Shown piece by piece: positions 9,782 through 63,600 of a stretch of 64,000 bases of DNA (positions within the stretch are counted from its first letter, which is position 1; every line of letters starts with the position of its first letter). The stretch is from Candidatus Cloacimonadales bacterium (GTDB lineage: Bacteria > Cloacimonadota > Cloacimonadia > Cloacimonadales > DAONDQ01). The notes under the pieces were generated by a model. That model was not told the DNA's origin. It did no database searches and saw only the letters and a program-made list of their open reading frames with translations. The stretch covers positions 352,001 to 416,000 of the forward strand of contig OY759316.1 of NCBI GenBank assembly GCA_963662275.1. The letters run 5' to 3'. A program made the position numbers and the translations under genes.

Positions 9782-9800
9782 TGGCGTCCTACGGACTCAC

Positions 9801-10433: not shown

Positions 10434-10453
10434 TTTAAAAAAGATAGAATTTC

Positions 10454-10496: not shown

Positions 10497-10497
10497 T

Positions 10498-10530: not shown

Positions 10531-10557
10531 GTGGAAAAATGAAATTGGAACGAAAGA

Positions 10558-11005: not shown

Positions 11006-11039
11006 GAAACGGGATTAGAAAAAATAGGAGATTATTAAA

Positions 11040-12902: not shown

Positions 12903-12913
12903 GGTTTTGGAGT

Positions 12914-13010
12914 TTACATGAAAGCTAAGAGTTTGGAGTTCAGATTTCCTTCGAATCTACTACGACTTCTCAAGTAATAGGAAATTCGGACTTCAAAATC
13001 GACCTTTCAT
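12914..13010 (+). repeat. ~95-bp dispersed intergenic repeat (family H)
   Basis: Reverse complement closely matches 42914-43011; degenerate copies ~5790-5875 and ~14985-15057. Confidence 0.7.
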
Positions 13011-13162
13011 CATCGGTAGCGAAAACCCGTTTTCAATTAAGTTCAAAACCGACATTTCATGTCAAGTAGTGAAAACCTACTTTCATGAGAAATTGAGATT
13101 AAACGTTGTAGGATTCAGCAGGAACAGCGTCCTGCTCTACATAGATACTAAAGGAGAAATCC

Positions 13163-44503: not shown

Positions 44504-45733
44504 TTAATCATTATACAAAGCTGAGATTCTTTGAATTCTATCGATATTATCGGTAAAGATTTCGATTAATTCCGGGTCAAAAGCAGAACCGGAACATCTT
44601 TCCAATTCATCCATCACCTGTGCCTGATCCCAAGCTTCCTTATAAACGCGGGGACGGGAAAGTGCATCATAAACATCTGCAATTTTGACTATGCGTCCCC
44701 ATATGGAAATCTCTTCACCTTTGAGTCCAGTACCCATTTTGTGGTTTGTATGTGAATCAAGGTCTTTCTCTAAACTGTAATGTCCCGGGTAACCGGTTCC
44801 ATCCCAGCTTTCGTGGTGTCTTAACGCTATTTCAGCCGCCATGATTTCCAATTCGGAGGAGCTTTCCTTAAATAACTGAAATCCCAGGAGAGCATGCTGC
44901 TTGATGATATCGTATTCTTCAGGAGTCAATTTCCCCGGTTTTTTAAGAATATGATCCGGAACTGCAACTTTTCCAACATCATGCAGCATAGATGCAACAC
45001 GTAACATATCTTTCCGGATATCGATTTCAGATTCCGGGATTTTATTTTTACGTGCCCATACTTCATATAATTCAGCAGAATAAGCGCCAACTCTATTCAC
45101 GTGAGGACCGGTTTCCAGCGGGTCACGTAATTCAGCCATACTAATCATTCTCAATATAATTGTTCGAGTTAGTTCTGCTTTTTCTAGAGCAACTGCAGCG
45201 TTGTTTGCTAAATGTTCAAAGAAGGGTATCTCTTTATTTTTAAAAGGAACGACATTACCATCCTTGTCCTTGGCATTGATTAGTTGCAGGACACCAACAA
45301 TACGACTCGTTCCTGTTTTCAAAGGGATACTCAACATGGATTTCGTTTTATAACCAGCCATTACATCCACAATTTTACCAAATTGATATGAGGATTTTGG
45401 TGATATTTTATAAACATCAGGAATATTGAGGATTTCACCTGTTTCTGCAACGTAACCGGAGATTTTTAAGCGATCTATAGGAAATGACATTGTTGAGTAG
45501 ATGAGCTTTTGTCCATCGGGTAACTTACTTTGTTTAGTATCATTCTGTGAATATCGGAGATGAAGCATACCTTTCTGGCATTTATAGATTGTACCTGCGT
45601 CAGCAGATGCAAAACGTCTCGCTTCTGTTAATATCCTTTCAAGTAGGAAGTCTTCGTCGGTTACTTCTGTCATTAATTTACCTAAGCGAATGATTTCTTC
45701 TAACTTATCTCTCGTGTTCATATACTGCACCAC
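44504..45733 (-). CDS. GAF + HD-GYP cyclic-dinucleotide phosphodiesterase
   Basis: GAF (GYVAETGEILNIPDVY..TKSMLSIPL..GVLQLIN); ETGPH, LHDVGK, HHESWDGTGYP, ADVYDAL..R.YK. Confidence 0.93.
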   Translation of the reverse strand: MVQYMNTRDKLEEIIRLGKLMTEVTDEDFLLERILTEARRFASADAGTIYKCQKGMLHLRYSQNDTKQSKLPDGQKLIYSTMSFPIDRLKISGYVAETGEILNIPDVYKISPKSSYQFGKIVDVMAGYKTKSMLSIPLKTGTSRIVGVLQLINAKDKDGNVVPFKNKEIPFFEHLANNAAVALEKAELTRTIILRMISMAELRDPLETGPHVNRVGAYSAELYEVWARKNKIPESEIDIRKDMLRVASMLHDVGKVAVPDHILKKPGKLTPEEYDIIKQHALLGFQLFKESSSELEIMAAEIALRHHESWDGTGYPGHYSLEKDLDSHTNHKMGTGLKGEEISIWGRIVKIADVYDALSRPRVYKEAWDQAQVMDELERCSGSAFDPELIEIFTDNIDRIQRISALYND

Positions 45734-46864
45734 CTATTTAGTATTCATTGTAGGAATAGCGAAATTTTCATTTTTCTTATGTGTATTTTTCCAAATATCT
45801 ACTTTTTGTTTTTGTTCAGTGATTTGTTCTGGTGTTAGAGTTTTTTCCAAATCGTCTGCCATTGGAACGTATTGCTTCATGTCTTCGAAGGAACTATAAT
45901 TTGCTGCTAATGTCATCCAGTAATAGGCATCAGGAATACTTTTTACCAAGCCATTACCCTGGGAAGCTAGAACTGCCAGGCTATAGAAAGCACGAACATT
46001 ATTTTGTTCAGATGCTTTCTTTAACCATGTCACTGCTTCAGTGAAGTTCTGTTCCACTCCTGAACCTTGTCCATAAAGAATACCCAAGGCACTTTCACTA
46101 TCAGCATTTCCCTGCTCTGCTGACTTGCGATACCATAGGGCTGCCTCCGCATAATCAACATCGACCCCGGCACCTTGCGCATAGTAATTACCGACGATTG
46201 ATTGCGCTATCGCACTACCTTTATCGGCTGCTATTTTAAATTGGTTTAAAGCTAATGAATAATCTTGTTTGACTCCCCTGCCTTCCTGGTAAAGAACACC
46301 GAGTTGTATGATCGCTTCTATTTGTCCTTGCTCAGCAGCTTTACTGTACCAGGTGACAGCTATGGCTTCGTCTTTTTCTACTCCCTGCCCTTTTTCATAA
46401 CAGTAACCCAAGTTATATTTTGCTAAGGAATTTTCCATATTTGCACTTTTACGAAAGAGTTTTACGGCTTTTTCAGGATCCTTTGTTACACCTAGACCAT
46501 TCAAATAACAAACTCCCAGCAATCCAGATGCTTCAGGTATATTATTATCAGATGATTTTGTCAGCCATTCTGTTGCCGTTGTGTAATCCTGTGCAATACC
46601 TTCGCCAACGTAATACATGTAACCCAAATTATATTGGGCAGAAGGATGGTTCTTCTTTGCAGCTTCTATAAACCAGTAATATGCTTCCTTCATATTTTTA
46701 ATTGCTCCAAGTGATCCTTCAGCATATCGGGTTCCTAAAACATATGCTGCTTCAGCAGAACCGTTTTCAGCAGAATTCCGAAGATCATCAATACTGTCTA
46801 TTGCAGATATTTGAGTGATAAAGCTGATAATAACAATATAAAATATGATGGCAATGAGTTTCAT
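45734..46864 (-). CDS. Secreted Sel1-like repeat protein
   Basis: Signal peptide; about eight AQYNLG.MY..GEG...D...A..W..KAA repeats. Confidence 0.93.
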   Translation of the reverse strand: MKLIAIIFYIVIISFITQISAIDSIDDLRNSAENGSAEAAYVLGTRYAEGSLGAIKNMKEAYYWFIEAAKKNHPSAQYNLGYMYYVGEGIAQDYTTATEWLTKSSDNNIPEASGLLGVCYLNGLGVTKDPEKAVKLFRKSANMENSLAKYNLGYCYEKGQGVEKDEAIAVTWYSKAAEQGQIEAIIQLGVLYQEGRGVKQDYSLALNQFKIAADKGSAIAQSIVGNYYAQGAGVDVDYAEAALWYRKSAEQGNADSESALGILYGQGSGVEQNFTEAVTWLKKASEQNNVRAFYSLAVLASQGNGLVKSIPDAYYWMTLAANYSSFEDMKQYVPMADDLEKTLTPEQITEQKQKVDIWKNTHKKNENFAIPTMNTK

Positions 46865-47219: not shown

Positions 47220-47310
47220 TTGTGAGCGGATCCTGAGGGAATCCTGAGGGAGTCCTGAGAGAAGTGCGAAGTTCGAACTTCGAAGTGCGAAGTACAGAGA
47301 AGAGAAGGGG
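47220..47310 (+). repeat. 11-bp repeat (RTCCTGAGRGA x3) abutting a family E heptamer run
   Basis: TCCTGAG at 47231, 47242, 47253; same motif at 132 and 154. Confidence 0.65.
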
Positions 47311-47523: not shown

Positions 47524-49320
47524 ATGAATAATGAAATAACTCAGAATCAATTAAGCAGCGAAGAAATTCGAAATTCCCTGGAAAATATGGAGATCGAAAA
47601 AGCAAAGCTCGAATCAGCGTTGGTACCATTGTTAATCATGCTAACGGACTTGAAGAATTCCACAGTGTATTTTGATCGATTAGGAGATATTGCAGCAAAA
47701 TCTGTTATTTTTGCGCATAACCAGTTACTATTTCCTATTATTGAACAACATCACGGCATTATCGTAAAGACTACCGGAGATGGTATATTAGCATCCTTCG
47801 AAAGTGCTGCAGACGGTGTTGCTGCAAGTATTCAAATGCAGAAAGCTCTCAAAGAATTCAACAAGAGAAGAGAACCGGAATCAATCATGGAAATCAGGAT
47901 AGGTTTACATTATGGTAGGACTTTGGTTTTTGAGAAGGATGTTTTTGGAGATTCCATTAATACTGCTGCCCGTATTGAAGCCTTGGCAGACAGTGGACAG
48001 ATATTTCTTTCTAAAGCAGTTGTGGATGCAGCGCAATTAACTGAAGAATCGCTTTGTTTCATTGGGCATGTCTTACTGAAAGGCAAGCTTGTACCTGTGA
48101 GGATCTACGGATTAGTATGGGAAACAATGAATCCTGACCTTCTTTCAAGCTATGAAGAAAAGAAACGTACATTTGAGAAATTAAAATATGATAAGAACCA
48201 GCCTCAGATTAAAATAGAAGGTAATATTGCTTTGAAGGAAGATGAAACAGTACACATAGAATCTAAAAATAACCCATTCCTATATCGTTCTGCAATAACA
48301 CAACCTGCCTATTTCTATGGTAGGGATACTTTAATTCATAAAATATTCTCACGCCTGACCGCTCAACGTCCACAGTCGATATCGCTATACGGTGAAAGAA
48401 GAATTGGCAAATCCTCGCTTCTCTGGCAGATACAAAGCTTGAAATTACGTAAGCAATTTGTCCCTGACATTGAGAAGTATATCTTCATCTACATGGACAT
48501 CCAGTCCATGCGTTCAGCGACTATTGAGCACTTTATAGAGCATTTATTTAATGCAGTAAAAGACTCTTTCAGGGGTCAAATTCAATTTGAATTGCCCTGT
48601 GATTATCATGGTTTTACCTCTTTAGTAAGCGAATTGACAAAGGCAGATATCAAGATTATCGTTTTGTTTGATGAGTTCGACCTGATTACCCTCAATCATA
48701 ACTTCACAGAAGAATTCTATTCCTGGCTGCGTTCGATTGCCAGTCAATATCCGGTCGCATTCGTCACATCATCCTTTTCTCAATTACAGAATTTATGCGC
48801 TACCAAGAAAATATCAGATTCCCCTTTCTTCAATATCTTTACAGCTTTCCAAGTGAGTCCATTTACCCGGTTGGAAGCGGAAACTATGATCAAAGGCTTG
48901 CTGGAAATATCTCAAAGCGGTTATGATTTTTCTTCCTGGTATGATGAAATATGCAGACAGGCAGGATTACTGCCGTTCTTTATCCAGATATACTGTGCTA
49001 ATTTGTACGATTTATTTCCATCAAATCCAACTCTATCCGATGTAGCAGAAGCCTATTTTGAAGAAGCCAGGGAACACTTTGATCATATTATCCGTAATCT
49101 GACGAAAGAAGAAGCACAATGCATTGATTGCTTAATTTCAGGTAAGAAAATCGGGAAGAACCTGGTTCCTTCCTATCAGAATCTGTTGCGTAAGGGCTAT
49201 CTAATCGAAACTGAAGGTAAAGTAACCTCTTTTTCGAATCGGTTTGCCACCTATTTCACACAGCAAGCCACGAAGAATTCGAACCAGTCCATTTGGAGAC
49301 GTTTATGGAACAAATCCTGA
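47524..49320 (+). CDS. Class III adenylate cyclase fused to a STAND-like P-loop ATPase
   Basis: LTDLKNST, KTTGDG, RIGLHYG, DVFGDSINTAAR (cyclase); NPF..FYGR, GERRIGKSS, VLFDEFD, SPFFNIF (ATPase). Confidence 0.92.
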   Translation: MNNEITQNQLSSEEIRNSLENMEIEKAKLESALVPLLIMLTDLKNSTVYFDRLGDIAAKSVIFAHNQLLFPIIEQHHGIIVKTTGDGILASFESAADGVAASIQMQKALKEFNKRREPESIMEIRIGLHYGRTLVFEKDVFGDSINTAARIEALADSGQIFLSKAVVDAAQLTEESLCFIGHVLLKGKLVPVRIYGLVWETMNPDLLSSYEEKKRTFEKLKYDKNQPQIKIEGNIALKEDETVHIESKNNPFLYRSAITQPAYFYGRDTLIHKIFSRLTAQRPQSISLYGERRIGKSSLLWQIQSLKLRKQFVPDIEKYIFIYMDIQSMRSATIEHFIEHLFNAVKDSFRGQIQFELPCDYHGFTSLVSELTKADIKIIVLFDEFDLITLNHNFTEEFYSWLRSIASQYPVAFVTSSFSQLQNLCATKKISDSPFFNIFTAFQVSPFTRLEAETMIKGLLEISQSGYDFSSWYDEICRQAGLLPFFIQIYCANLYDLFPSNPTLSDVAEAYFEEAREHFDHIIRNLTKEEAQCIDCLISGKKIGKNLVPSYQNLLRKGYLIETEGKVTSFSNRFATYFTQQATKNSNQSIWRRLWNKS

Positions 49321-50279
49321 TTGATCGCCCACAATACACATCGCGCATATATTCACGGTTATTTGCTTCACGCCCCCAATCCATATCGATTATTGGTGAT
49401 TGGCAATTGGGTAAGTCATCTATATTGCAGCTTTTATCTGATGAAAGCTCATGCAATCAATACCAGTTTAATCATATGAATCCCATCTTTATCCTCTTTG
49501 ATTTAAAAGAATCAAAAGCAGATTGGCAGACATTCCTTTCATCCATATATGCCAAGTTAGCTCAATATTCAAATACGAAGCAGGATGTTACTCAAGTAGA
49601 TTCAGATATCTACCAGGCTTTACAAAAATTAGTGGTAGAATTACAGGAAAAGTATGCAATCTGCCTGTTGATCGATAATTTTGAATTACTGACCCAGAAT
49701 CCTGAAACACCCTTAGAATTCTTTTCCTATCTGCGATCCCTGGCAAATACCTACCGGCTTGCCTACATTACAACATCCAGAGCCTCACTGCAATCGCTAT
49801 GCGTAAGTTCAGATATCTGTGAATCGCCATTTTTTAACATCTTCACAAATCTGGAATTAAAGAATTTATCGGTGGACGAAGGAAAAACACTGTTAAATGC
49901 ATACAATATTACGGATAAAACGGAACTTGCCTTTGAAATAACCGGTGGGCATACTGGTCTATTCATGAAATGGATATTGTGGTTTGTTCATAACCAGGAT
50001 GTAGGGCATGATCAAATACAATCACAATTCTTTGACTCGGTTGAGTGGTATTGCCAGGAATGGTTTGCTCAATTCAGTCCTGATTACCAGGAAGTATTAA
50101 CGAAACTCGCCAAGCAGGAGAAAATCCCCTCTGATAAGCAGTATCTGATGGAATCACTGAAACGTAAAGGCTATCTTACTATTGCGAATACTATTTCTGC
50201 AAGGGCATTTTATAATTATCTGTTGCAGCAGGAATCAAAGCCTAAAGCTGGATTGTTCGCCAGGCTGTTTAAAAAGTAG
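49305..50279 (+). CDS. Stand-alone STAND-like P-loop ATPase with degenerate Walker B
   Basis: GGAG SD before ATG 49305; GDWQLGKSS, LLIDNFE, LRSLA, SPFFNIF; paralogous to the upstream ATPase domain. Confidence 0.85.
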   Translation: MEQILIDRPQYTSRIYSRLFASRPQSISIIGDWQLGKSSILQLLSDESSCNQYQFNHMNPIFILFDLKESKADWQTFLSSIYAKLAQYSNTKQDVTQVDSDIYQALQKLVVELQEKYAICLLIDNFELLTQNPETPLEFFSYLRSLANTYRLAYITTSRASLQSLCVSSDICESPFFNIFTNLELKNLSVDEGKTLLNAYNITDKTELAFEITGGHTGLFMKWILWFVHNQDVGHDQIQSQFFDSVEWYCQEWFAQFSPDYQEVLTKLAKQEKIPSDKQYLMESLKRKGYLTIANTISARAFYNYLLQQESKPKAGLFARLFKK

Positions 50280-50318
50280 GTATAAGAATTTAAGATTTAA
50301 GATGTAAGATTGGCAGAG

Positions 50319-50540
50319 CAGTCCGGTACGGACGATAGATAATAACGCTCGGATTTCAATCCGGCGAGAGATGACTCAAAGTGACAACCAGTCCGGTACG
50401 GACGATAGATAATAACGCTCGGATTTCAATCCGGCGAGAGATGACACGGAGATCATCTGTCGTCCCGATGGGACTTAGACCTTCTTCTTATATCCTGCAC
50501 CGGATTGAAATCCGGTGTTAATATGTTTCTTCCCTACGGG
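50319..50540. repeat. REP-like cluster: 57-bp perfect direct repeat x2 plus inverted partners
   Basis: 50319-50375 = 50389-50445; inverse pieces TGTCGTCCCGATGGGACT and CACCGGATTGAAATCCGGTG. Confidence 0.8.
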
Positions 50541-50571
50541 AATACGAAACTACGAAATCTCAGGAGAGTGT

Positions 50572-53500
50572 ATGAGTTATAACCAGATACCCCAGAATCC
50601 TTATATCGTTGGAAATCCCATCCAATCGAGCAGTATGTTTTATGGACGGAATGAAGACTTCCTCTATATCAAGGATAAGCTTCAAAAAGAAGCACGGGGT
50701 CTGATTATTACACTCGCTGGGGAAAGACGAAGCGGGAAGACATCCATCCTGTTCCAAATCCTGAATGGCAGGCTGGGTGAAGGGTATCTTCCCTTCTTTG
50801 TCGATATGCAGGCAATGGCTGCAGTGGAATCAGATGCCCAATTTCTCAGTCGTTTGGATAACGTAATACGAACTCAATTAACTATCCAGGTTTCCGAGCA
50901 GGATTATCAAGGCAATAAATGGTCAGCTTTCGAAAATTTCCTCCATTCAATTAAAGAAGCATATACAGAGAAGAAAATCATATTCCTCCTGGATGAGTAT
51001 GAAATCATCGAAAACAAAATTGATAAACAAATGATTACAACAGAAATGATCACTTTCTTTGCCAATCTGATGGAAAATCATAACATCTTTTTCCTGTTTA
51101 CCGGTTCTAACAAATTGGAAGACCGCAATGCCACATATTGGAAAACACTCTTCAGTAAATCACAATATCGAAAGATCACTTTCCTTCAAAAAAAGGACTG
51201 TCTTGATTTAATAACAAAGCCTGTTGAAAACTATGTGATCTATACTCCTGATCAATTGGATAATATCTGGCGTCTCACAGCAGGACAGCCATTCTATACT
51301 CAGATCTTCTGCCAGAATATGGTGGATAGGCTGCAATTGGAACAGCATAATGAAGTGCTGGACAATGACATCGATGCTGTCATTAAAGATATTGTAGATA
51401 ATCCCATGCCCCAGATGATCTATTTCTGGCAGGAATTGGATGCTAAACATAAACTGACATTATCCATTTTAGCAGAAGTAATCAATACTAAAGATGACTG
51501 GGTAGACTGTGATGATCTAATGAAATGCCTGAAAAACCAAAAGATCGATATCAATATCCATGCTTCAGATTTTCATACTGCCATGGAAGAACTCTATCAT
51601 AATGATATCTTAACCAAGAAAGGCAAACAATACCAATTCCGTGTCGATATCTTTCGCTTCTGGATCAAGCAGGAACAGAATGTCTGGAAACTGCTGAGTG
51701 AGATAAAAATTGATAAAGAAAAGAGACCAGTACATCGTTTAACTCTTTCTATTGGTTTTGTTCTTATGGTACTTTTGATTATAGGTGGTTTATTCAGAAT
51801 TTATATAGTACTGAAACCTACATCTGAATTTGGTATGAGCAAAAATCGTGAAGCAATAAATTTGTATAAGCAAGCGCAGGATAGATTTGCAGAAAACGAC
51901 ACAAGCTTTGCTCTTCAAAACGTAAATCGTGCATTGGCAGCAGATTCCTCTTTTTTCATGGCAAAAATACTCAAAGCAGATATTCTGAAAGCACAGAATA
52001 ATCTTCCAGAAGCTCTTAAAGTATATCAGAATGCAGAAAACCAATATTATTATAGTACCGATGTCGGGGAAAAAATCAGTTCTATTCCAATTTCTTTCAA
52101 AACTGATGATAAGCTAGCTCAATGGAGAACGACAGATACAGAGGATTATTTTATCTATGATATGCTTTATATTTCTCATGTACTTTCAAATGACATGATT
52201 AAAGCAAATAAAAATCATAATCTTTATATTTATAGCTTAAGAAAGAATAAGTGGTTTTCTTTTCAGAATTCTGTATGTTTAATGACTGATAAGAAGGCTA
52301 TTTTCTTTTATAATATCCAAAATCAAGCTCTTTGTAAATTCGATGTTAACCGAGGGAAAACAATATGGAAAACGAAATTAACAGGTTTATTACAGAACTC
52401 ACTTATACCTGATATATCTGAAACAAAACATTGTAAGTATTTGATACTAAGAGAAAGGAAGCAGCTTTTTCTTTTTAATCAGGATACGGGAAAACTTGTC
52501 ATTCGTAAAGTCTATCCAAATAATATACAGAACGTCTTTTTCCTATCCAAGGATAACCGACTTTGGGTTGTCTTTGACCAAATGCATCAAATCCTCAGCT
52601 TACCAGACTTGTCTTTTATCACCCAAAAGACTATTCCAAATATGGATGTTTCTTTTGAGAAGGTCAATAATACAATCATTAGCTCTAATGATTCCAACAA
52701 TCACAGAACAGAGCTATTAGAGTATAAAGAACAGAATGGAAAGTTAAATCGAATTACAAATATCTTTGCATTCAACAATGAAAGTGGAAATGGAACTATG
52801 TTAAGTAAAAAGCTGCTCTATGTTTTAAATAATAATAAACCGCAGGTTTTTAATTTACAAACCAAACAGCTATATTCAATGTCCAATTTGAGCCGTTATC
52901 AAATTCTAAGCATGTATTCTAATCAGTATGAGATTGGAAATTATGACGACAGAATATTTTTCTTTACAGAAAAAGACTTATTGATCTATAATTTAAAAAG
53001 TCATAAAGTGCAAGAAGTTATTGCTCTTAATAAACTGACAGATTCTACCACTTCTTCCATTCCTACAGACATAGAATTTGATAAATATCGAAAACGTATT
53101 ATTTGTCTCTATTCGGATAAAACAGAATCAAATAATGTACAAAGCCAAGTAATATCCATTGTGGACATAAAGAAGAAGAGTATCATATACAGTAATCGTT
53201 TGGACATTAATACCCCAATATCATTCATTCAAAAAAATATGTACTCTTTTATACAATATGACGTTCTTGCTTACGCGAATCTCATTTGGAATGAAATTAA
53301 CTTCGTTTTAATGAATCCTGATAATTATCAAGTATCTTTTGTTGCGAAACTTGATATGATGCTGATATATAAAAATAAACTATTTATCATGAAAAACAGA
53401 GATGTGCTCTGTCTCAATACATTCCCTCGCCAAGATAATAAATACCTTCAAAAAATACAGGAAAATATCATTCTGTTGAGTTTCCAATTAAAACAGCCAA

Positions 53501-54990
53501 AAAACGTAATTGAAAGCTTTGATAAATTGATCAAATATGCTAAAACAGTCAACGATGTGAATGTCCTAAGGACTATAATTAATACTGTTCAAATATTCAA
53601 ACCTGAGATGCTAGGATATTATGTAACAAAATGTGTAAATCTTTCAAACGACCTTAACTCTCTTAAACCAGATATTAATTATTCAATGCAGCTAATTCCT
53701 TCAGCACGATTTAAGGATAAATTACTACCACATAATAGCTATGATGAACTGGAAAAATTGAATGATGAATTGGTTGCTCGAGTAGATGAAAATTCTGTTT
53801 TTAGAATAAATAATAACCAACCAGATCTTCTATATCAGGAAACAAATACTAACAACATCTACGTTGCGAGTGGAATATCATCGTATATTCAGAATACGGA
53901 ACCACCTAAATTGAACATAGTGGACAGGCAAAATCATGTTTTTACACATAATTTACCCTTTCCAAAGCAGATGAGAGCTGCAATCAACTGGTATGATGAA
54001 AACAATATAGTATATATAACCCAGGAACAATTTGGAGACGGCTTTAATTATGAAATGAGGCCAATGGATATCTATACAGGTAATAAATCTATCATTTGGC
54101 AGAAATGGAGTAGCAGTCTTCATCTAATAGGCATGATTCAAAGAGAGAATAAAGTTGGTCTCATGTACTCTGATAGTCTTGCTAAAGTCTATTATGTCAA
54201 AACACCTCAAAGCAAATTAATCATTCCCGATTTTTCCCAAATTCTGTCTGTTAATAGTAAAGACATTGAAAATTCAGATCAGATAATGATGAATGAATTT
54301 CCTAAATCAGTAATCACATATATCTCAAGTGGTAAAAATACTTCTGTGACACTCAGTAAGGATGAACTGTCTTCTGCGCAATTCATGAATTTGACAAAAC
54401 AATATATCCAATGGTTTGATGTGAGAAATTCAGTTTTTGAACCTATCATTGAACTCGATAAACCATGTAGTATTAGTCATAATGAAATTGAGATTTATGA
54501 TTCAATGATAGACGATAAATATATTATTCAAAGGGGAAAAGATGTAGAAAATAACGCTTTCTTTAATATAGCTTTCAATTGTTTAACAGGAGCTGTTTCA
54601 GATTACCAAGTCCTACCTGCATCAAATGATCGTAGCTCAATTACATATAAAAATTACTCGTTAATGGAAAGCAGTCTCAATATAGGGATGGTAAATATTA
54701 AACTATATAAACAAACTGCGAATGGTAAATTAGCGCTACTTTGGGAAAAACAGATACCGTATGACTTTGGATATCTTTATAATATTCAATCTGGTATTTG
54801 TACTTTAATATGTAATCTTTCTACTAATAATATATCGAACCGCCATCTTGTTTATCTCTCTGAAACAGACGGTCATATCATCAAATCATTCCCTATTTTG
54901 AATGATATGCAGTATTTTTCATTCACAAACCAACCTCCTATCCTCTTTCATAAGAAACTTGGGTTTTATGAATTACCAGCAGTCAAGTGA
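50572..54990 (+). CDS. STAND-like ATPase + TM helix + TPR-like + predicted beta-propeller region
   Basis: AGGAG SD; NPYIVGNP..FYGR, GERRSGKTS, FLLDEYE, TAGQPFY; TM LTLSIGFVLMVLLIIGGLF; TPR-like helices; PQQ/WD-like blades (FDVNRGKTIWK, FNQDTGKLV, LSETDGHIIK). Confidence 0.85.
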   Translation: MSYNQIPQNPYIVGNPIQSSSMFYGRNEDFLYIKDKLQKEARGLIITLAGERRSGKTSILFQILNGRLGEGYLPFFVDMQAMAAVESDAQFLSRLDNVIRTQLTIQVSEQDYQGNKWSAFENFLHSIKEAYTEKKIIFLLDEYEIIENKIDKQMITTEMITFFANLMENHNIFFLFTGSNKLEDRNATYWKTLFSKSQYRKITFLQKKDCLDLITKPVENYVIYTPDQLDNIWRLTAGQPFYTQIFCQNMVDRLQLEQHNEVLDNDIDAVIKDIVDNPMPQMIYFWQELDAKHKLTLSILAEVINTKDDWVDCDDLMKCLKNQKIDINIHASDFHTAMEELYHNDILTKKGKQYQFRVDIFRFWIKQEQNVWKLLSEIKIDKEKRPVHRLTLSIGFVLMVLLIIGGLFRIYIVLKPTSEFGMSKNREAINLYKQAQDRFAENDTSFALQNVNRALAADSSFFMAKILKADILKAQNNLPEALKVYQNAENQYYYSTDVGEKISSIPISFKTDDKLAQWRTTDTEDYFIYDMLYISHVLSNDMIKANKNHNLYIYSLRKNKWFSFQNSVCLMTDKKAIFFYNIQNQALCKFDVNRGKTIWKTKLTGLLQNSLIPDISETKHCKYLILRERKQLFLFNQDTGKLVIRKVYPNNIQNVFFLSKDNRLWVVFDQMHQILSLPDLSFITQKTIPNMDVSFEKVNNTIISSNDSNNHRTELLEYKEQNGKLNRITNIFAFNNESGNGTMLSKKLLYVLNNNKPQVFNLQTKQLYSMSNLSRYQILSMYSNQYEIGNYDDRIFFFTEKDLLIYNLKSHKVQEVIALNKLTDSTTSSIPTDIEFDKYRKRIICLYSDKTESNNVQSQVISIVDIKKKSIIYSNRLDINTPISFIQKNMYSFIQYDVLAYANLIWNEINFVLMNPDNYQVSFVAKLDMMLIYKNKLFIMKNRDVLCLNTFPRQDNKYLQKIQENIILLSFQLKQPKNVIESFDKLIKYAKTVNDVNVLRTIINTVQIFKPEMLGYYVTKCVNLSNDLNSLKPDINYSMQLIPSARFKDKLLPHNSYDELEKLNDELVARVDENSVFRINNNQPDLLYQETNTNNIYVASGISSYIQNTEPPKLNIVDRQNHVFTHNLPFPKQMRAAINWYDENNIVYITQEQFGDGFNYEMRPMDIYTGNKSIIWQKWSSSLHLIGMIQRENKVGLMYSDSLAKVYYVKTPQSKLIIPDFSQILSVNSKDIENSDQIMMNEFPKSVITYISSGKNTSVTLSKDELSSAQFMNLTKQYIQWFDVRNSVFEPIIELDKPCSISHNEIEIYDSMIDDKYIIQRGKDVENNAFFNIAFNCLTGAVSDYQVLPASNDRSSITYKNYSLMESSLNIGMVNIKLYKQTANGKLALLWEKQIPYDFGYLYNIQSGICTLICNLSTNNISNRHLVYLSETDGHIIKSFPILNDMQYFSFTNQPPILFHKKLGFYELPAVK

Positions 54991-55115
54991 AGTACGAAGT
55001 TCGAAGTGCGAAGTACGAAGTTGCAGAACAAGAAGAAGGGAAGATTGATTGAATAGAGCACGTAGTGTGAAAGATAATAGCCTAGCGTAAGCTATGGGTA
55101 ATCATAGGAGAATGT

Positions 55116-57119
55116 ATGAGTTATAATCAGATACCTCAGAATCCTTATATCGTGGGAAATCCCATCCAATCGAGTTCAATGTTTTATGGTCGGAATGAAG
55201 ACTTCCTCTATATCAAGGATAAGCTTCAAAAAGAAGCACGGGGACTGATTATTACACTTGCAGGAGAAAGACGAAGCGGGAAGACATCCATCCTCTTCCA
55301 AATCCTGAACGGCAGGCTGGGTGAAGAGTATCTTCCATTCTTTGTGGACATGCAGGCAATGGCAGCAGTGGAATCGGATGCCCAGTTTCTCAGCCGTTTG
55401 GATAATGTGATCAGAACTCAGTTGACAATCCCTGTTGCAGAACAGGATTACCAAGGTAATAAATGGTCTGCATTCGAAAACTTCCTCAATTCTGTGAAAG
55501 AAGCATATCCGGGGAAGAAAATCATATTCCTCTTAGATGAGTATGAAATCATTGAAAATAAAATAGATAAACAAATGATTACGGCAGAAATGATCACTTT
55601 CTTCGCTAATCTCATGGAAAATCATAACATCTTTTTTCTTTTCACTGGTTCGACAAAGCTTGAAGATCGCAATGCATCTTATTGGAAAACACTCTTCAGT
55701 AAATCACAATATCGAAAGATCACTTTTCTCAAGAAACAGGATTGTATCGATTTGATCACTAAGCCTGTTGAGAATTTCGTTATCTATACTCCTGATCAAT
55801 TGGAGAATATCTGGCGTCTGACTGCCGGTCAGCCATTCTACACACAGATATTCTGTCAGAATATGGTGGATAGACTGCAATTGGAACAGCGTAATGAAGT
55901 ACTTGAAGAAGATATTGATGCTGTCATTACCGATATTGTTGACAATCCTATGCCCCAGATGATCTATTTCTGGCAGGAACTGGATGCCAAACATAAACTT
56001 ACACTTTCCCTCCTGGCAGAAATCAATACGACGAAAGATAAATGGGCTGATTGTGATGATTTATTAAAATGTCTGAAAAACCAGAAGATAGATATCAACA
56101 TTCACGCATCGGATTTCCATACTGCTTTTGAAGAGCTTTATCATAATGACATTCTATCAAAAAAAGGCAAACAGTACCAATTCCGTGTCGATATCTTCCG
56201 CTTCTGGATCAAACAGGAACAGAATGTCTGGAAACTACTCAAGGAAGTGAATCTTGATAAAGAAGCCAAACCTACACGGAATAACATCCTGGCAGTGAGT
56301 ATTGTTGGGCTCTTGGTAGTGATTTGTGCTGGTGTGCTTTTTTATGCGTTGAAGCCAAAACCAGCAACAATCCAGAGTTCCAAACCCACACAAAATACTA
56401 AAATCGAGGAAATATATGTGGATGGAGGTACGTTCACTATGGGTGACACAGCAGGTGGTGGAATTGAGGATGAAAAACCTACGCATCAAGTGAAGCTATC
56501 CTCTTTTTATATAGGGAAATACGAAGTTACCCAGGAGCAGTGGCAGGATGTCATGAACTATAATCCTTCCGTTTTCAGAGGTGAAAGCCTTCCGGTTGAG
56601 GCGATAAGCTGGTACGACTGCATTGAATTCTGCAACAAACTAAGCCTGCAGAAAAGATTAATGCCTTGTTATAGCGGAGATCGAAACAATATAACGTGCA
56701 ATTGGACTGCCAATGGTTACAGGCTTCTCACGGAAGCAGAATGGGAATATGCTGCCAAAGGTGGTAAAAAGAGCAAGGGTTACAAATATTCAGGCGATAA
56801 CGAACCGCAAAGTGTGGCTTGGTACGCTGCAAATTCCAGCAGCAGGACACACCAGGTTGGTCAAAAACGAGCAAACGAACTGGGATTATCTGATATGAGC
56901 GGTAATGTCTGGGAATGGTGCTGGGATAGGTTTAAAGCAGATTATTATAGCCTGAGTCCTATATCAAATCCGAGGGGACCAGAAGAAAAATCGTACCGGC
57001 TGCTGCGCGGTGGCTCCTGGTTCTTCAATGAATACGGTTGTCGTGTTTCTACCCGTAATTATCTTAACGAAGGAGACAGGCGAGATAACATCGGATTTCG
57101 ATTATGCAGAAGGAAATGA
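55116..57119 (+). CDS. STAND-like ATPase + TM helix + FGE-sulfatase (C-type-lectin-fold) domain
   Basis: N-terminal ~383 aa nearly identical to the previous gene; TM ILAVSIVGLLVVICAGVLF; GGTFTMG, KYEVT, RLLTEAEWEYAA, DMSGNVWEWC, RGGSW, GFRL. Confidence 0.92.
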   Translation: MSYNQIPQNPYIVGNPIQSSSMFYGRNEDFLYIKDKLQKEARGLIITLAGERRSGKTSILFQILNGRLGEEYLPFFVDMQAMAAVESDAQFLSRLDNVIRTQLTIPVAEQDYQGNKWSAFENFLNSVKEAYPGKKIIFLLDEYEIIENKIDKQMITAEMITFFANLMENHNIFFLFTGSTKLEDRNASYWKTLFSKSQYRKITFLKKQDCIDLITKPVENFVIYTPDQLENIWRLTAGQPFYTQIFCQNMVDRLQLEQRNEVLEEDIDAVITDIVDNPMPQMIYFWQELDAKHKLTLSLLAEINTTKDKWADCDDLLKCLKNQKIDINIHASDFHTAFEELYHNDILSKKGKQYQFRVDIFRFWIKQEQNVWKLLKEVNLDKEAKPTRNNILAVSIVGLLVVICAGVLFYALKPKPATIQSSKPTQNTKIEEIYVDGGTFTMGDTAGGGIEDEKPTHQVKLSSFYIGKYEVTQEQWQDVMNYNPSVFRGESLPVEAISWYDCIEFCNKLSLQKRLMPCYSGDRNNITCNWTANGYRLLTEAEWEYAAKGGKKSKGYKYSGDNEPQSVAWYAANSSSRTHQVGQKRANELGLSDMSGNVWEWCWDRFKADYYSLSPISNPRGPEEKSYRLLRGGSWFFNEYGCRVSTRNYLNEGDRRDNIGFRLCRRK

Positions 57120-57386: not shown

Positions 57387-57657
57387 ACGGAACGCCTCAC
57401 CCCGTGAGGTGGCAAAAGGCACCCCGTGCGTTTTCTACTTTTTGCAGAGAACATGGGAGAGAAGGGAAGAAGGACTTGCAGAATGGAAGATGGAAGATTG
57501 TGCAGAGAAGAGCAGAGAATTTATTTCCGTAAATCCATACGAAGAATCTAACTATCCGCTTAGACTTTGCTTAGGGCAAGCCAATACCACTCGTTAATTG
57601 ACGGGGGTTAAAACGCACGGGGTGCGTTTTGCCACCTCACGGGGTGAGGCGTTCCGT
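57387..57657. repeat. MITE/REPIN-like element with 48-bp terminal inverted repeats
   Basis: 57387-57434 vs 57610-57657 match at 47/48; 175-bp interior. Confidence 0.8.
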
Positions 57658-57689: not shown

Positions 57690-60600
57690 CTAAGGCAGAT
57701 CCCTTTCCGCAGTGATTTTATAGAAATGTATGGGTCTGAGTCTTTCTTCTACGTAAGTAGGTGTTTCCGTGGTCATGACTAAATTGGGGAAAGTGCCATT
57801 CGGGTCTGTATCTACATAAATACGGAAACGTGAAACGGGCAGAGGATATGTCCAATTCAATTCAACTTTTTGCGTTTCGGTGTTGAAGCTGACGGTTGGG
57901 GTTGGTACGGGTGGCAGGGCATTCCAAATGACCTGTGATGGTCCGAAGGCATTATTCGTTTCAATTGCTTCCGCAACGCTTGCATTTTCATCGACAAAGG
58001 CATAGGAAGTCCAGGTTCCAGCCACATCAGAGCTGACCAGGACGAAAGTGACGGTTGCACTAGCCCAGGCATCGAGGGAGTTGATAGTCATATATTGATT
58101 TCCCACAGTTCCTGTGGTAGGGGCGGATGCCCTTGTATAATACAAATCCACACGTATAGGTGTGCCGACTCCCACAGCGCTATTGTTCATGATAGTCACA
58201 TCCACAGTATTCGCATCACAGACATAGAGATTATTGCTGTTATAGAACATACTCACGATCTTCAAATCAGGAAGCGGTCCATTCCAATTGATCAGGTTAT
58301 TGGGATCGCTCTCATAAGAAGCACCAGAGAAAGCTCCTGAAGCGCCGCTCATATTGATCAGTCCCTGGTTTGCTGCTTTGGTGACATTCTTGGCATTGCT
58401 GCCTGCATTGGTGGGGAATGAGGCATAAGGAATGGTGATCGTTGCATTGTTTTCTATTTTCAGCAAAGTACCGCCTGCTACACCATTTTGGAATGTACAA
58501 TAAGAGAAAGGATGAAGAGGATCCAGTATCGAACCGTTCATCAGGTAAACACCATTGGCAGTCATGTATTCAAAAGTGGCATATTCAGCACTTAAAGTGG
58601 CACCGCTTGCCAAGTAGAATAAGTAATTCCCTGTGGATTGATGCGTTATTTTTGCCAAATGCCCGGATGCTCCGATCACTTCCAGGTAACCACCTGTATT
58701 GACTGTCAGTGTCTTCGTATTTGCCACCTCAAGCCAGGCATCGGAATCAAGGCTTATTTTACCTGTGCTGTTAATGGTCACGTTGCCGGTTGTGCGGAAG
58801 TATTTATGATTCATAAGGAGTGTTCCTGAATTGATGGTCATGGTTCCGGTCATCGCTACGACCATAGGATATTGCATCAGCACAGTTGTCGCAGCGGTCT
58901 TTTCTATTGTGAGATTATAAATATAACTGGTACGGCAATCATAGAAAAAGTTCTGGCTGTTCCCGCCCTTGAGTTTGATCGTATTTAGCCTGCTGCCATT
59001 CCAAATGCCATTGACGCTCAAGTATACATCCCCTGAGAATTCATGAATATATCCTGTGGTTGAATCATACCATTCACCACGTGTAAGGGTCAGGTTACCT
59101 AATACTTTACAGAATTTGGTTGGGATGAATCTCCCTGCAGTTTTATTGACGATCAGGTTATAAGCATTTATCACTGATGCTGAGTTGGTGATAGTCTGAT
59201 CTGCTGCACCGTTGAAGGTCAAGGTGGAGGTTCCGGGATTGAATCCCTGGGTTTCATTATAAACTCCGTTTGAATCAGTCCAGTTACCTCCGACAGAGAT
59301 ATTCAAGCCCATATCGGTATTGGCATTCAAGCCTGCACCTGAGGATATGACCAAATTGCCTGTCACAGCAAGTGTGGAGTTGTCATTCATCTCGAATGTG
59401 CCATCTGTAATCGTAAGGTTACCACCAACAGTACAGGTCTGTCCTGCAGCTAGTTCAAAGGCATCTGTACTGGCGTTTGTATTATTCAGCACGAGATTAT
59501 TGAAGGTTTCAGAGGTCAGCAATCCAGTATCCACTGAATTGCCAGCAAAGGTAACGGTGTTACTAATTTCGAAGAAGCCACTCGTACCAACCGTATTCGT
59601 CCAATTGCCATAAACCGTAATCGCATAGCTGGATTGCAGGATACCGCTATAGATCTGCATATCTCCCCGAATTGTAATCGCTGATGTCTGAAGCGCAGTG
59701 TAGCCACGGGTCGAAGTTCGAAGTGCGAAGTCCGAAGTTCGAAGTGAAGAAGGAAGAGAAGAATCAGAGGAATTGCGAAGTTCGAAGTCCGAAGTTCGAA
59801 GTGAAGAAGGAAGAGAAGAATCATAGGAAGTTCGAAGTTCGAAGTTCGAAGTTCGAAGTGAAGAAGGAAGAGAAGAATCATAGGAATTGCGAAGTTCGAA
59901 GTCCGAAGTGCGAAGTGAAGAAGGAAGGTTTACCCCCCTGCCCCCCTCATCAAGGGGGGGTATTGGGTCAGCAGACCCATCCCCGGAACGGGCACCTTTG
60001 TTTATGCGGAGGGTGTAGAATGAACTGCCGGCTGCCATATCAAGTACACCGTCTGTAGTACCGGTCATTTCGATTGTACCACCGGCAGGAACGAAATTGG
60101 TTCTGTAGCAGTAAATATCTCCCACAACACTGATCACACCCCCGGAGATATCCGAATTGAAAGTATAGCTATTAAGAGGCAGTTTGATACCCCAGGATTT
60201 AAAATTGAGTTGTCCGCTGTCCATCAGGATGGAAGCATTTGCCAAATAGGCAAATTCATAGGCTTTGCTGCCTCCATAGATGTTGATGATACCGTTTTGA
60301 GTGATATACAGATTACCGTTGAGATCACACCAACTGCCTGTATCCTGGTGCAGTTCGATGGTTCCATTTGTTGCATAGTATTTTCCATAAATTCCAGCAT
60401 CCACCAGGTCATTCACGATAATTATACCTAATCCTGTTGCTCTCAATGTTCCGCCTCCATCGTAGGAAGCAATTGTGGAAGTAAGTCCGTAATGCTGTTC
60501 TACAGTGGCTGTGGAGCTATTGTTATTTAGCAAATTGATAGTCATGTTATCCTGGAAATAGACGATATTGGAAACAAAGAGTGTATTCCCAACTGTGCAG

Positions 60601-63600
60601 GTATGCATGAACTGCAATTCATTGCCTGTATGGCTATCCGTGACATTATAGAAAGTCGTGGCACCCGAGATCGTCTGTACACCGCCAGCCTGGTTGAATA
60701 TCACGGTTCCTGTACCGGGTATGAAGCGATTCTCGGAATTCGGATTATACCAATTCCCGCCTAAACTGATGGTATTGCTGTTGGAAGCCAGTTTCCCGGA
60801 ATTGATGTAAAGCTGTCCTTTCACAGTAATCGGGCTTAACAAGTTAAGAGCTACTAGTCGATATTTATTGATTTGCAGATTGAAAATATAGTTACCGTTG
60901 TTGCAGGTCAGGGAATTCTCTGTTCTGCCTATCATTTGCAGTTCCCCTGAAGTCATTTGAAAGGCATTGAGTGCCGTAGCTGTGAAATTTCCACCTACTT
61001 TTAGAAAACCGTCTCCATAAGAACGGGTTTCATGGGCATCCATGATCACATTGCGATATGTGATCTGCAAGATACCCGCTGACATCTGGATTCCTCCATT
61101 GAGCACTGTGTCAGAGCCTTCCAGATAAGCAGGGGCATCCTGGATGAAGGAACCGCCATCGATTTGCAGTAGGGAAGAGCTGGAAGGATAGAAACTGCCA
61201 AGCACGGTACAAGTGCCCGTTCCCACGCTGAGTGTTCCATCTAATGTCAGGTCGGATGTGAGATACAGGTAACCGCCGGTTCCAAGGGTGAGATTTGCTG
61301 TTGCAGGAACGGTCAGAGCATTGATAACACGGGCAGGCTTTCCTGCCAGATCGAGCGTATTATTCGGGTCAATGGTCAAAGAACCCAACACTAAAAGAGA
61401 ATCGGTACTGGCAGGAAGTACATGGAAATAGGGAGTTTCCTGCGTACCTTTGATTGCCAGGTTGCCGAAATGAGCATATAAACTGGAATTTAGAATGGTA
61501 CCACCATAATCAGCCCTCAGGTTCACTTGTGTATTCTCCAGTTGTACGATACAACCGGTTTGAAATTCCCAATTGCCGTAACAATTGATCGTTCCGTTTG
61601 CTCCAGCCATACCTGAAGTAGATGTCCAGATAAAGTCATTGTATGTTGTGAGAGTCCCATGATATTGCATATTCAGTTGACCGGCTATTTGAATACTGTT
61701 CAAAACAGTAACTGTGAAAGTATAAGGCTCAAATTTGCCTGCAGTTAGATGGAAATAGCCATGTATATTCACATCCGAAGCAGCTTGCACTACATATAGA
61801 GATCTTTGGTTTGGAAGCGTGGTGTTCTGACCTTCAGCACGACTGGCAGATTTTGCAATGACAAGATTGTTCAGATAACTCCCTGGAACAATGGAAAGCT
61901 CTGCTTGTTGAGATCCGATCATCTCGATGATTCCGCCTGTAGGCTGGAAATCAGCACGATTACATACGAATTTACCTGCAGTTAGGATCATTCCACCTGT
62001 GATATTAGCCGTAAATAAGTGAGTGTTCGTAATAACAATACCTTTATCCACGAACTCAAAGAGACCGTTGCTCATTGTTAAAGATGCATTGTCATCCTGT
62101 GCCCAATTGCTGTCCGAGTTACCGCCATGCACCATAAACGAACCGTTATCAATCGTGATATTCGCATTCATGGCAATTTGAGCAGCACCGTCCTGGGTAT
62201 AATTGATTACCCCATTTGTCATATAAATGGTTCCAAAGATGCCATTATCGACCAGGTCATGGACGATGAAAGTTCCGCCATAAACACGATATTCGCCCGA
62301 CATCCAGTCATAATAATTACAGGATGTAGTCGTATTGACAGGAAATTGCAGATAGCCACCGCTTTTGTTTAAAATGATCTTGTTGAAGGTTTCACCAAAG
62401 ACAGCCTGGAGCTTTGATCCTGTGAATTCTACAACTCCGTTGCCTTCGCTATAACCACTGGTGCCTATGTTGTTATACCAGTTTCCTTCAATTTTCATAG
62501 GATAACCGTAAGCTACCACAACTCCAGCAGTGATAGTAAAATTTCCTTTGACCCAGAGAGGTCTTCTCAAATTCACAAGGGCGCTGCTCACACTTTTCAG
62601 AATCGTTAGGTCATTAAAATAGCTTGCAGTATCATATTCATAAATATCAGTCGTCGTACTGCCCTCAATATTAACCACGCCATTAGAGAAGTAACAATGT
62701 CCACCTTCCAGATTTATGTAACCGCCACGAAAATGGATGGTACCATAATACAGATAATTAAATGTACTCCCGGCAGTGTTGGAGAAAAGACCGATAATAT
62801 AGAGTTCATTCGTAGAGGATGCGCTGAAATTAACGGCAGCAGGAGCGGTTTTATTGATCTTCAGGTTTCCAAGAGTCTGTCCGGAATTGACGTTTATGGA
62901 TGAATCTAAGGTACCGTTGAATTCCAGGGTGGAATTGGTTAGATTCACAGCGCTTCCGCGATTGAATGTCAAATCTCCCTGGATGTTTATCTTGGAACCC
63001 GTTGTAATGGTCGGCGTGGTTGCATAACTGTAAAAAGTAACGTCACCGTTCACATTCATTACACTGGCTGCATTCGTCAGATTCAGTTCTCCGGCAGTCG
63101 TAAAGTCATTGAGTACATTCAAAGTACCGGCATAGATAGATATCTTTGCACCGACAAAAACATGAAGATCCAAGCAGGAAATGGTTGATGTAATGGCGGG
63201 ATAGTTGCTTAGTCCACCTGGTATTTCCACAACATCTGAAGCTGTTGGTATACCATTCTTCCAATTTAAAGAAACGTTCCAGGAAATACCGTTACTACCT
63301 GTCCAAATCTTGGGCAAGGTACCACCATACTGGAAGGAGATATCATCTCCCGCTGTTCCGATATTGGAAATTTGCAGACCTCCGTCCACCATGCCTTCAG
63401 ATAGGAAACCATACGGGAAGGTGTTTGAATTGATCCCGGTCCTGCCTTCCTGTAAACAATAGTTAGCACTGTTGATGATGCCATCCACGGTTGGATAACC
63501 CTGGGGACGATACACATAGATCTCGTCTTCACCATCTGCATTCCCGTCATGATTGGTATTCACGCGATAGACGATGAGTCCTGTGCCCGGGACGTTGATG

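Follow-up and report, generated by a model that had tools for sequence, protein, structure and literature searches.

Known STAND NTPases act as switches in the cytosol, with roles in immunity, cell death and transcription. In mycobacteria, the Rv0386-type proteins (cyclase-ATPase-TPR-HTH) and PknK are single-chain cyclase- or kinase-STAND proteins, presumably regulated by nucleotide-dependent assembly. These soluble proteins rely on C-terminal repeats of their own for sensing and lack a paired membrane ATPase. Kaur, Burroughs, Iyer and Aravind (eLife 2021, PMC8195603), with whom the term nSTAND2 originates, predicted a mobile counter-invader operon whose two genes each encode a STAND NTPase. 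In the part of that paper covered here, the relevant rows, from proteobacteria, list a cytoplasmic STAND protein with a wHTH domain followed by a protein with nSTAND2, wHTH, TPR and either HEPN or GT4, and the effector is carried by an inactive STAND paralogue with degenerate nucleotide motifs. Here we analyse a cluster of four STAND-like genes, genes 1 to 4, from a Candidatus Cloacimonadales bacterium (contig OY759316.1). The 64,000-nucleotide (nt) stretch containing the cluster is called the window; coordinates are positions within it, and the evidence throughout is computational. The four open frames fill positions 47524-57119 and have one orientation (+).

Genes 3 and 4 encode membrane ATPases, and such proteins are called A-type below; genes 1 and 2 encode nSTAND2 proteins, and these are called N-type. 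The cluster is probably a split transmembrane receptor-enzyme system coupled via paired STAND modules. An earlier note on this DNA had proposed an interpretation of this kind, and the co-occurrence of the two types and the topology of the A-type proteins support it. With its unusual second receptor, the locus belongs to a large family of paired STAND proteins that is essentially undescribed. In the proposed mechanism the products of genes 3 and 4 would be single-pass proteins that carry a cytoplasmic STAND-type (ATPase_2, MNS-like) nucleotide switch and differing outside-facing domains. Gene 1 would provide the soluble output, a cyclase with a paralogous nSTAND2 switch, and gene 2 an adaptor or regulator. 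Ligand binding by the ectodomain would alter the nucleotide state of the receptor ATPase, and the latter would join the gene 1 and gene 2 ATPase modules in a mixed assembly. Cyclase domains would thus be brought together at the membrane as active dimers, and induced proximity would raise the level of cyclic AMP (cAMP). The two receptors would feed one output via near-identical ATPase modules kept by selection. Most other phyla would use the same pair to drive a Ser/Thr kinase. The sensing of a ligand, the direction of the signal, activation by proximity and the role of gene 2 are what we infer in this scheme.

The pair of A-type and N-type genes recurs in many genomes. A scan with the single gene 1 protein yielded one weak locus, and a scan based on the alignment of gene 1 homologues was used instead. 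It produced 80 N-seeded loci, whose open frames were searched with parts of the four genes (an A-type call required E < 1e-30). Both types are present in 62 loci. The A-type gene is missing in 17 of the other 18 and the N-type gene in one (L092); several of these loci are cut by contig ends, and for 9 of the 18, as judged by record names, an A-type gene lies on another contig of the same assembly. The A-seeded survey added 77 new locus ids, with an N-type gene in 58. Counting only the A-seeded loci outside the N-seeded set, the N-type gene was found in 38 of 56, and in 27 of the 34 that have a flank of at least 3 kb on both sides. All 101 A/N pairs from both surveys are on the same strand; the N-type gene is downstream in 94, and the gap is at most 150 nt in 49.

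The surveyed loci come from more than ten phyla. According to the record titles, the carriers belong to Spirochaetota, Calditrichia, Acidobacteriota/Blastocatellia, Latescibacterota, Eisenbacteria, Glassbacteria, Gemmatimonadales, KSB1, Krumholzibacteriota, Fibrobacteraceae, Desulfobacterales, Bacteroidales, Cytophagia, Actinomycetota, 'Clostridia' and Cloacimonadota. The loci closest to that of the window (two, with 71% and 69% identity) are from Cloacimonadota assemblies and share the order seen in the window, that is, cyclase-nSTAND2, short nSTAND2 and an A-type protein of 1478-1489 amino acids (aa), and the second receptor is absent. Co-occurrence in other genomes, which the earlier note had named as a check, is thus observed. 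The array that it expected to recur is reduced to the A-type/N-type pair, the conserved core being two genes and not four. Its interchangeable receptors have a counterpart in the two receptors of the window, which suggest receptor exchange, but among the other surveyed loci two A-type genes were observed only in L099, where one of them is only 381 aa long.

The two types also share their phyletic distribution. In a sample of 61 genomes of the class holding locus L077, the A-type profile has a match in 29 genomes and the N-type profile in 28. All 28 N-positive genomes belong to the 29 A-positive ones, and the 32 A-negative genomes have no N-type match. In three single-contig genomes of this class the A-type and N-type genes are ~0.86-1.4 Mb apart, and both are kept. 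The system is single-copy in this class, with a uniform architecture of ~1300-1460 aa, and occurs in about half of the genomes.

The variable parts of the A-type proteins are mostly not cytoplasmic. All 61 distinct relatives with an N-terminal ATPase have no hydrophobic segment before it and one after it. Of 52 relatives with a C-terminal ATPase, 26 have two segments before the ATPase and 16 a single one, while 2 lack any and 8 have between three and ten; two segments in this position are a signal or anchor plus the membrane helix. Therefore, the variable part is outside the cytoplasm in nearly all cases. The modules found there are typical extracytoplasmic ones, as expected for the receptor topology initially assumed.

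Two lines of evidence point to a physical association of the modules. Firstly, in the protein P0125 (751 aa, no membrane helix) a whole N module is fused to a whole A module: the N-type profile matches it with probability 100 over residues 2-361, and the sequence continues into NPYIVGNPI. Secondly, a heterodimer of gene 4 (aa 1-390) and gene 1 (aa 240-598) was modelled in three runs with three controls. The interface score ipSAE (interaction prediction score from aligned errors) is 0.64 vs 0.00 for the best control, a mark attained by 116 of the 157 solved complexes and 2 of the 215 mismatched pairs of a benchmark that applies here only approximately, since custom alignments were used for the model. 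The runs have at least 82% of the contacts in common, and the partner pLDDT (predicted local distance difference test) is at least 81. The predicted contacts involve signatures of the families: NPYIVGNP, the RR preceding the P-loop, D78/Q80 and DNPxPQM for the A-type, and the RPQS helix and DSPFFNIF for the N-type. Of the 40 interface residues of the A-type module, 16 are invariant or almost so, compared with 62 of 390 overall (hypergeometric p 8e-5). Both the natural fusion and the modelled complex fit the hetero-oligomers that had been proposed.

It is scarcely credible that the four genes are unrelated neighbours that have a common ATPase fold and no joint function. Scans of the cluster for promoters and terminators did give a signal at the level of shuffled sequences, and genes 2 and 3 are separated by a 292-nt spacer, as unrelated neighbours might be. 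However, this explanation is at odds with the co-occurrence and co-orientation of the genes, their shared phyletic profile, the fusion protein P0125 and the interface predicted for the complex.

Table 1. Features of the cluster and its surroundings in the window
Feature	Position	Strand	Description
Gene 1	47524..49320	+	598 aa, class III cyclase and nSTAND2 NTPase
Gene 1, Guanylate_cyc (PF00211)	47635..48087	+	aa 38-188
Gene 2	49293..50279	+	328 aa, bare nSTAND2 paralogue
Gene 2-gene 3 spacer	50319..50518	+	57-nt direct repeats and terminator-like hairpin
Direct repeats in spacer	50319..50375, 50389..50445		two exact copies, part of a dispersed genome repeat
Hairpin in spacer	50497..50518		9 pairs
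Gene 3	50572..54990	+	1472 aa, A-type ATPase_2/STAND, one membrane helix, 1058-aa ectodomain
Gene 3, membrane helix	51757..51813	+	aa 396-414
Gene 4	55116..57119	+	667 aa, A-type ATPase, one membrane helix, FGE-sulfatase
Gene 4, membrane helix	56286..56342	+	aa 391-409
Gene 4, FGE-sulfatase (PF03781)	56406..57107	+	aa 431-664
Duplicated module	50556..51750, copy at 55100-56300	+	ribosome-binding site up to membrane helix
GAAGTGCGAAGTTCGAAG-type motif	47258..47293, 54986..55021		upstream of gene 1 and again just past gene 3, 86% identity
Inverted repeat	57387..57657		3' of gene 4; 48-nt arms, 98% complementary, 175 nt between
Peptidase_C10 protein	29154..34241	+	1695 aa, I69 inhibitor prodomain, CarboxypepD_reg domains
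GAF + HD/HD_5 protein and Sel1-repeat protein	44504..45733, 45734..46864	-	divergent, upstream of the cyclase gene
CARDB protein	57690..63980	-	2096 aa, convergent with gene 4

The cyclase part of gene 1 matches Guanylate_cyc with 47.1 bits (Pfam cut-off 21.9), and its closest solved structure is the Ma1120 cyclase (4wp3, E 1.1e-22). Residues D42, K82, D86, D139, N146 and R150 are invariant in the alignment of 20 homologues. We take them to be the class III motifs, namely the two metal Asp residues, a Lys/Asp pair for adenine and an Asn/Arg pair for the transition state. Because this putative catalytic set is invariant, the domain looks like an active adenylate cyclase of the homodimer type. 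The nSTAND2 domain (PF20702, aa 280-529, 107.1 bits, cut-off 24) belongs to a module of about aa 248-598, which contains NPFLYR..FYGR, Walker A GERRIGKSS, Walker B VLFDEFD and DSPFFNIF. There is no hydrophobic segment, and the protein ends in a basic amphipathic tail, SIWRRLWNKS. Pfam and the invariant positions agree with the initial description of gene 1 as an ATPase fused to a class III cyclase with its catalytic residues. The NTPase of gene 1 and the A-type module are distant paralogues (24% identity, E 6e-15). For the N-type, the fold is predicted from a match of its profile to the archaeal ATPase_2 protein 2fna (E 1.2e-5). The genome carries this one cluster only. It has 11 cyclase-domain and 3 cyclic nucleotide monophosphate (cNMP)-binding matches, and therefore a cAMP network exists that the cluster could feed.

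Gene 2 consists of nSTAND2 alone (61.8 bits, cut-off 24) and is 34% identical to the NTPase of gene 1, so that its reading as a bare paralogue overlapping gene 1 stands. The overlap is 28 nt from the start TTG 49293 and 16 nt from the alternative ATG 49305. Walker A is intact (GDWQLGKSS), Walker B reads DNFE in place of DEF, and the tail is GLFARLFKK; the motif alignment contains no NP..FYGR (NPY) motif in this protein. Hence, of the STAND-like motifs ascribed to all four genes, Walker A is present in each, whereas gene 2 lacks NP..FYGR and has the altered Walker B. The same pattern is observed in the relatives. Among 19 aligned N-type modules, all of which retain GK[ST] in Walker A, Walker B has DN or DD in 12 of 12 short modules and DE in 7 of 7 long ones, and the short ones are devoid of NPY..FxGR. 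Gene 2 thus probably binds ATP and hydrolyses it poorly or not at all, which would suit a protein acting as adaptor, cap or timer within a mixed complex. Short gene-2-like genes precede the cyclase-bearing gene in 11 of the 16 loci that have a cyclase-bearing N-type, and are likewise present in a small number of loci that lack a cyclase. Basic amphipathic C-terminal tails are found in genes 1 and 2 and in several relatives; they may resemble the membrane-targeting helix of MinD.

Genes 3 and 4 match ATPase_2 (PF01637; 44.8 and 48 bits, cut-off 33.2) and have no Pfam match to nSTAND2. The A-type module occupies aa 1-385 in both, with Walker A GERRSGKTS and Walker B DEYE. An hhGRE-type motif upstream of the P-loop is a defining STAND feature; here it takes the form MFFGRExDF, with F23, G25 and R26 invariant in 26 sequences. 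Each protein has exactly one hydrophobic segment, right behind the ATPase. The model of gene 4 aa 1-395 has pLDDT 90 and pTM (predicted template modelling score) 0.84; the A-type alone was folded. Its best Foldseek matches include Cdc6 (1fnn, 1.8e-11), ORC2, 2fna and 2qen (template modelling (TM) score 0.54/0.59), a wheat resistosome, NRC3 and CED-4. The model thus has the arrangement of STAND proteins, in which the NTPase core is followed by a helical lid and a winged helix.

The ATPases of genes 3 and 4 share 86% identity across 416 aligned residues and 90% across the 395-residue module, a point that goes beyond the earlier note; beyond the membrane helix the proteins are unrelated. The duplicated module has 0.95 synonymous substitutions per site (dS) and 0.062 non-synonymous ones (dN), dN/dS being 0.066 (392 codons). 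With such a dS, the copies are not young. The cytoplasmic modules thus appear to be held almost constant by selection and combined with different outside domains. The homology to gene 4 begins at a shared AGGAGA ribosome-binding site just upstream of ATG 50572, and this ATG is therefore most likely the start of gene 3, in place of GTG 50515 assumed earlier.

The layout initially described for both genes, with an N-terminal ATPase followed by a single transmembrane helix, was recovered, as was the FGE domain of gene 4 (174.6 bits, cut-off 23.3). The 'TPR/beta-propeller' label given to gene 3 is only moderately supported, since Pfam finds a weak TPR_16 match only (E 0.0096) and the AlphaFold model of the ectodomain, built from five sequences, is of modest quality (mean pLDDT 64). 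The model has four confident N-terminal helices followed by two long all-beta regions with a helical stretch between them. Its top fold matches are multi-propeller proteins, e.g. EMC1 and DDB1, with low TM-scores. A language-model look-up, which serves as a lead only, returned TPR and PQQ-type propellers (score 0.91). In a word-based homologue search the ectodomain found only the gene 3 protein itself. The G+C content of this region is about 30-32% (52000-55000) vs about 38-46% around it. Gene 3 and its L097 orthologue are 35% identical overall, the ATPase being much better conserved.

A diversity-generating retroelement acting on the FGE domain of gene 4 was considered and rejected. Elsewhere in the genome, sequences matching 56700-57119 have 65-94% identity, and the final ~160 nt of the query are not covered by any of them. 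Those of greatest length (about 230 nt) are 65-77% identical and of paralogue type. The genome contains many paralogous FGE-sulfatase domains at this level of DNA identity to that of gene 4. Of its 18 reverse-transcriptase matches, 17 fall into near-identical multi-copy sets of 412-465 aa and are read as group II intron type.

The domains joined to the A-type ATPase, which can be at either end of the protein, were counted in 27 proteins from the loci and in 36 from the best 150 representatives of a profile search. In the former set we observed PEGA (11), Reg_prop with CarboxypepD_reg (5), Peripla_BP_6/ANF_receptor (2), TPR (2), Kelch (1) and nothing recognisable (6). The latter contains PEGA (12), Reg_prop (7, four also with Y_Y_Y), FGE-sulfatase (1), PD40 (1), RHS (1), the N+A fusion P0125, one protein with Pkinase, FHA and TIR (P0259) and 12 proteins with nothing further. 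The architecture of gene 4 thus recurs once among the 36 representatives. The search itself, against 1.84 billion representative proteins, gave 14754 matches at E 0.001 and 8378 at 1e-10, and the receptor-type module is not rare, with 3374 representative clusters at E 1e-30 or better.

One possibility is that the membrane ATPases are anchors or scaffolds that tether the kinase or cyclase to the envelope, responding to an intracellular cue such as nucleotide charge, with no signal crossing the membrane. The commonest partner is PEGA (11 of 27 and 12 of 36), for which we know of no established ligand-sensing role. No recognisable ectodomain is present in 6 of 27 and 12 of 36 A-type proteins. Tethering could proceed via PEGA or via lectin-like FGE domains, the basic tails of genes 1 and 2 could bind the membrane unaided, and the separate secreted protein encoded between the two genes in many loci could be the real binding component. 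On the other hand, some A-type proteins contain Peripla_BP_6/ANF_receptor or Reg_prop+Y_Y_Y domains, which are sensor modules of known receptors. Moreover, two inputs are easier to accept than two anchors, because one locus combines unrelated ectodomains with conserved ATPases. We therefore regard tethering alone as quite unlikely and retain the proposal of a receptor.

The secreted proteins encoded between the A-type and N-type genes occur in many phyla; the window has no such gene. Examples are found in L017 (7971-8900), L018 (7980-8873), L028 (8064-8993), L029 (7710-9011) and L041 (6562-7287). Their families are lineage-specific, with ~300 aa in loci with Spirochaet- titles, ~433 aa in Calditrichia and ~310 aa in L028, L045, L135 and L169. 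In Glassbacteria (L041, L048) the protein is ThuA-like (~241 aa), and a look-alike of this gene by length and N-terminus is present in L044 and L079 (Gemmatimonadales).

On the output side, a cyclase had been predicted, and it is found in this locus and some relatives: a cyclase-bearing N-type is present in 16 of the 80 N-seeded loci. The usual enzyme is, however, a Ser/Thr kinase. It occurs in 31 of 32 long N-types, at either end of the protein; 3 of these also have a cyclase, and the remaining one has a cyclase alone. In L045 (KSB1, 11050-12870) a kinase-nSTAND2 gene is followed by a gene for a 607-aa cyclase-domain protein (PADLOC PycC models, E 9e-14), which suggests that kinase and cyclase outputs can split over two genes. 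In L099 (Bacteroidales, 1120-13266) the order is nSTAND2+caspase, the short A-type protein, which has no ectodomain, a gene-2-like protein and a 763-aa A-type protein. Next come a caspase+FGE-sulfatase protein on the opposite strand and another caspase protein.

Several observations weigh against a receptor-enzyme system. The N side of the predicted interface is not significantly conserved (14 of 46 vs 77 of 359 residues, p 0.08), and the score of the complex may reflect likeness to solved AAA+/STAND oligomers, as the two proteins are distantly related paralogues (24% identity). Transcription of genes 3 and 4 may be separate from that of genes 1 and 2, given the hairpin in the long spacer between them. 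The phyletic match in the L077 class overstates the number of independent events, because the sampled genomes are kin. The distribution is patchy: in the class that includes locus L020, 2 of 61 genomes have the A-type, and a search among 41 relatives recovered full-length gene 1 from no genome other than that of the window. Such patchiness also suits mobile defence genes, and fast-evolving ectodomains like that of gene 3 also occur in conflict systems. Finally, nSTAND2 is fused to a caspase in L099, with caspase+FGE and caspase genes beside it, and in P0259 (1214 aa) not only Pkinase and FHA but also TIR_2 is joined to the A-type module.

The last points lead to the possibility of a defence system, in which the membrane STANDs would detect phage contact or envelope damage and the nSTAND2 partner would trigger growth halt or death, through a cell-wide response via cAMP, phosphorylation or proteolysis. 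Apart from the caspase and TIR fusions, the patchy distribution and the fast evolution and low G+C of the gene 3 ectodomain, it is favoured by the origin of the nSTAND2 name in predicted counter-invader work and by the description, in a source covered in part, of FGE domains as STAND sensors in defence proteins. However, the variable domains face outwards and are of the environmental-sensor type (Peripla_BP_6, Reg_prop/Y_Y_Y, PEGA). The output in 32 of 32 long N-types examined is a signalling enzyme. The cluster contains no cNMP-binding, TIR, membrane-disrupting or nuclease partner of the Pycsar/CBASS type. Its four genes have weak generic PADLOC matches (best 28 bits, PycC at most 28 bits), and of 62 flanking proteins from 11 loci 58 have no PADLOC match at 1e-8, the other four having generic ones (UvrD-like helicase, trypsin-like protease, cyclase, caspase). 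Across about half of the L077 class the system is a single copy of uniform build, and both genes persist even where they are ~1 Mb apart. No diversity-generating retroelement acts on the FGE domain. Taken together, a role in defence is unlikely, and signalling through paired STAND modules is the reading that we prefer.

Each block of genes in the cluster is bracketed by dispersed repeats (50319-50445; 47258-47293 with 54986-55021; 57387-57657). The 221 nt around the spacer repeats have 36 other matches in the genome. The spacer hairpin resembles a terminator, but such scans are at background level. The cluster stretch is present unchanged in sequencing runs of two studies; in these runs the contig depth rises several-fold at the dispersed repeats, and contigs break there. 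In three runs a short contig joins 47287 to 57388, skipping 10100 nt, its shorter side being 27 letters. This joint could be an 'empty site' of a related strain or could come from another copy of the flanking repeats, as short-sided joints often do. The GAF-HD neighbour of the cluster could be a cyclic-nucleotide-responsive phosphodiesterase. It is not beside the system in L097, and only a 29% identical match was found in the same-genus genome G001. The two giant proteins of the window (1695 and 2096 aa) are both surface-type.

The predicted operon of PMC8195603, to the extent that this source was covered, resembles our locus in the adjacency of MNS-like STAND NTPase genes, the predicted hetero-multimer and the degeneration of one paralogue. 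The difference is that here the enzyme-bearing gene 1 has intact Walker A and B motifs, and it is the bare gene 2 that has an altered Walker B. No HEPN or GT4 domains were found by Pfam in the four genes. One row of the source data of that paper, RMG61681.1 (Calditrichaeota), is a locus of the A/N-pair type: in the part covered, it matches the secreted gap gene, gene-2-like and kinase-cyclase proteins of the Calditrichia loci, and the upstream receptor ATPase is not listed in it. The covered part of the supplementary file mentions no membrane receptor partner or periplasmic sensor, and the word 'PEGA' occurs 0 times. A 2025 preprint, also covered in part, refers once to 'transmembrane STAND ATPases', which it presents as protease-fused sensors. 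Full-text literature searches, with the 2021 supplements covered in part, did not reveal the receptor/partner pair as a described system; other rows of those supplements may bear on priority. As far as these sources go, the system has no name, in line with the earlier note, which did not recognise it as a named one, with the qualification that one related row stands in the 2021 supplementary table.

More tentatively, the family may represent an undescribed class of transmembrane signalling, in which a receptor STAND switch recruits a separate kinase or cyclase via a paralogous STAND module, a membrane-spanning counterpart of sensor/helper NLRs with exchangeable receptors. Such a signalling logic would be distinct from those of histidine kinases, one-chain receptor kinases and chemoreceptors. 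If true, it would give a function to thousands of proteins annotated as 'AAA ATPase', 'PEGA domain protein' or 'protein kinase', a route for extracellular input to many orphan bacterial Ser/Thr kinases and cyclases, and a simple bacterial model of sensor/helper NLR-like pairing. The two-receptor locus of the window is a natural test case for receptor exchange.

Compared with the mycobacterial single chains, sensing and output are here on separate polypeptides, joined by paralogous ATPase modules. Plant sensor/helper NLR pairs (NRC network) have the same split into sensor and executor, several sensors per helper and oligomerisation, all of which are proposed here. The A-type model fold resembles NRC3 and the wheat resistosome chain, the kinship to NLRs being no deeper than the STAND fold. 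However, the plant pairs are cytosolic, with immune executors (channels), whereas the sensors of the present family are membrane-spanning and its helpers carry a cyclase or a kinase. Thus both the mycobacterial single chains and the sensor/helper NLR pairs are functional analogues and not family-level relatives. Receptor guanylyl and adenylyl cyclases and PASTA kinases are similar in having an outside ligand domain, a single membrane helix and a cytoplasmic enzyme that depends on dimerisation, and hybrid two-component sensors share the sensor modules Reg_prop, Y_Y_Y and Peripla_BP_6 with A-type proteins. These one-chain receptors couple via coiled-coil, HAMP or DHp; here coupling would involve two P-loop NTPases on two chains. 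The nearest solved relatives, the archaeal ATPase_2 proteins SSO1545 (2fna) and PAB2304 (2qen), are stand-alone and soluble and have no membrane helix, ectodomain or enzyme fusion. In the locus described here, the STAND module is directly under a membrane helix with an outside-facing sensor domain, and is paired with an enzyme-borne STAND module.

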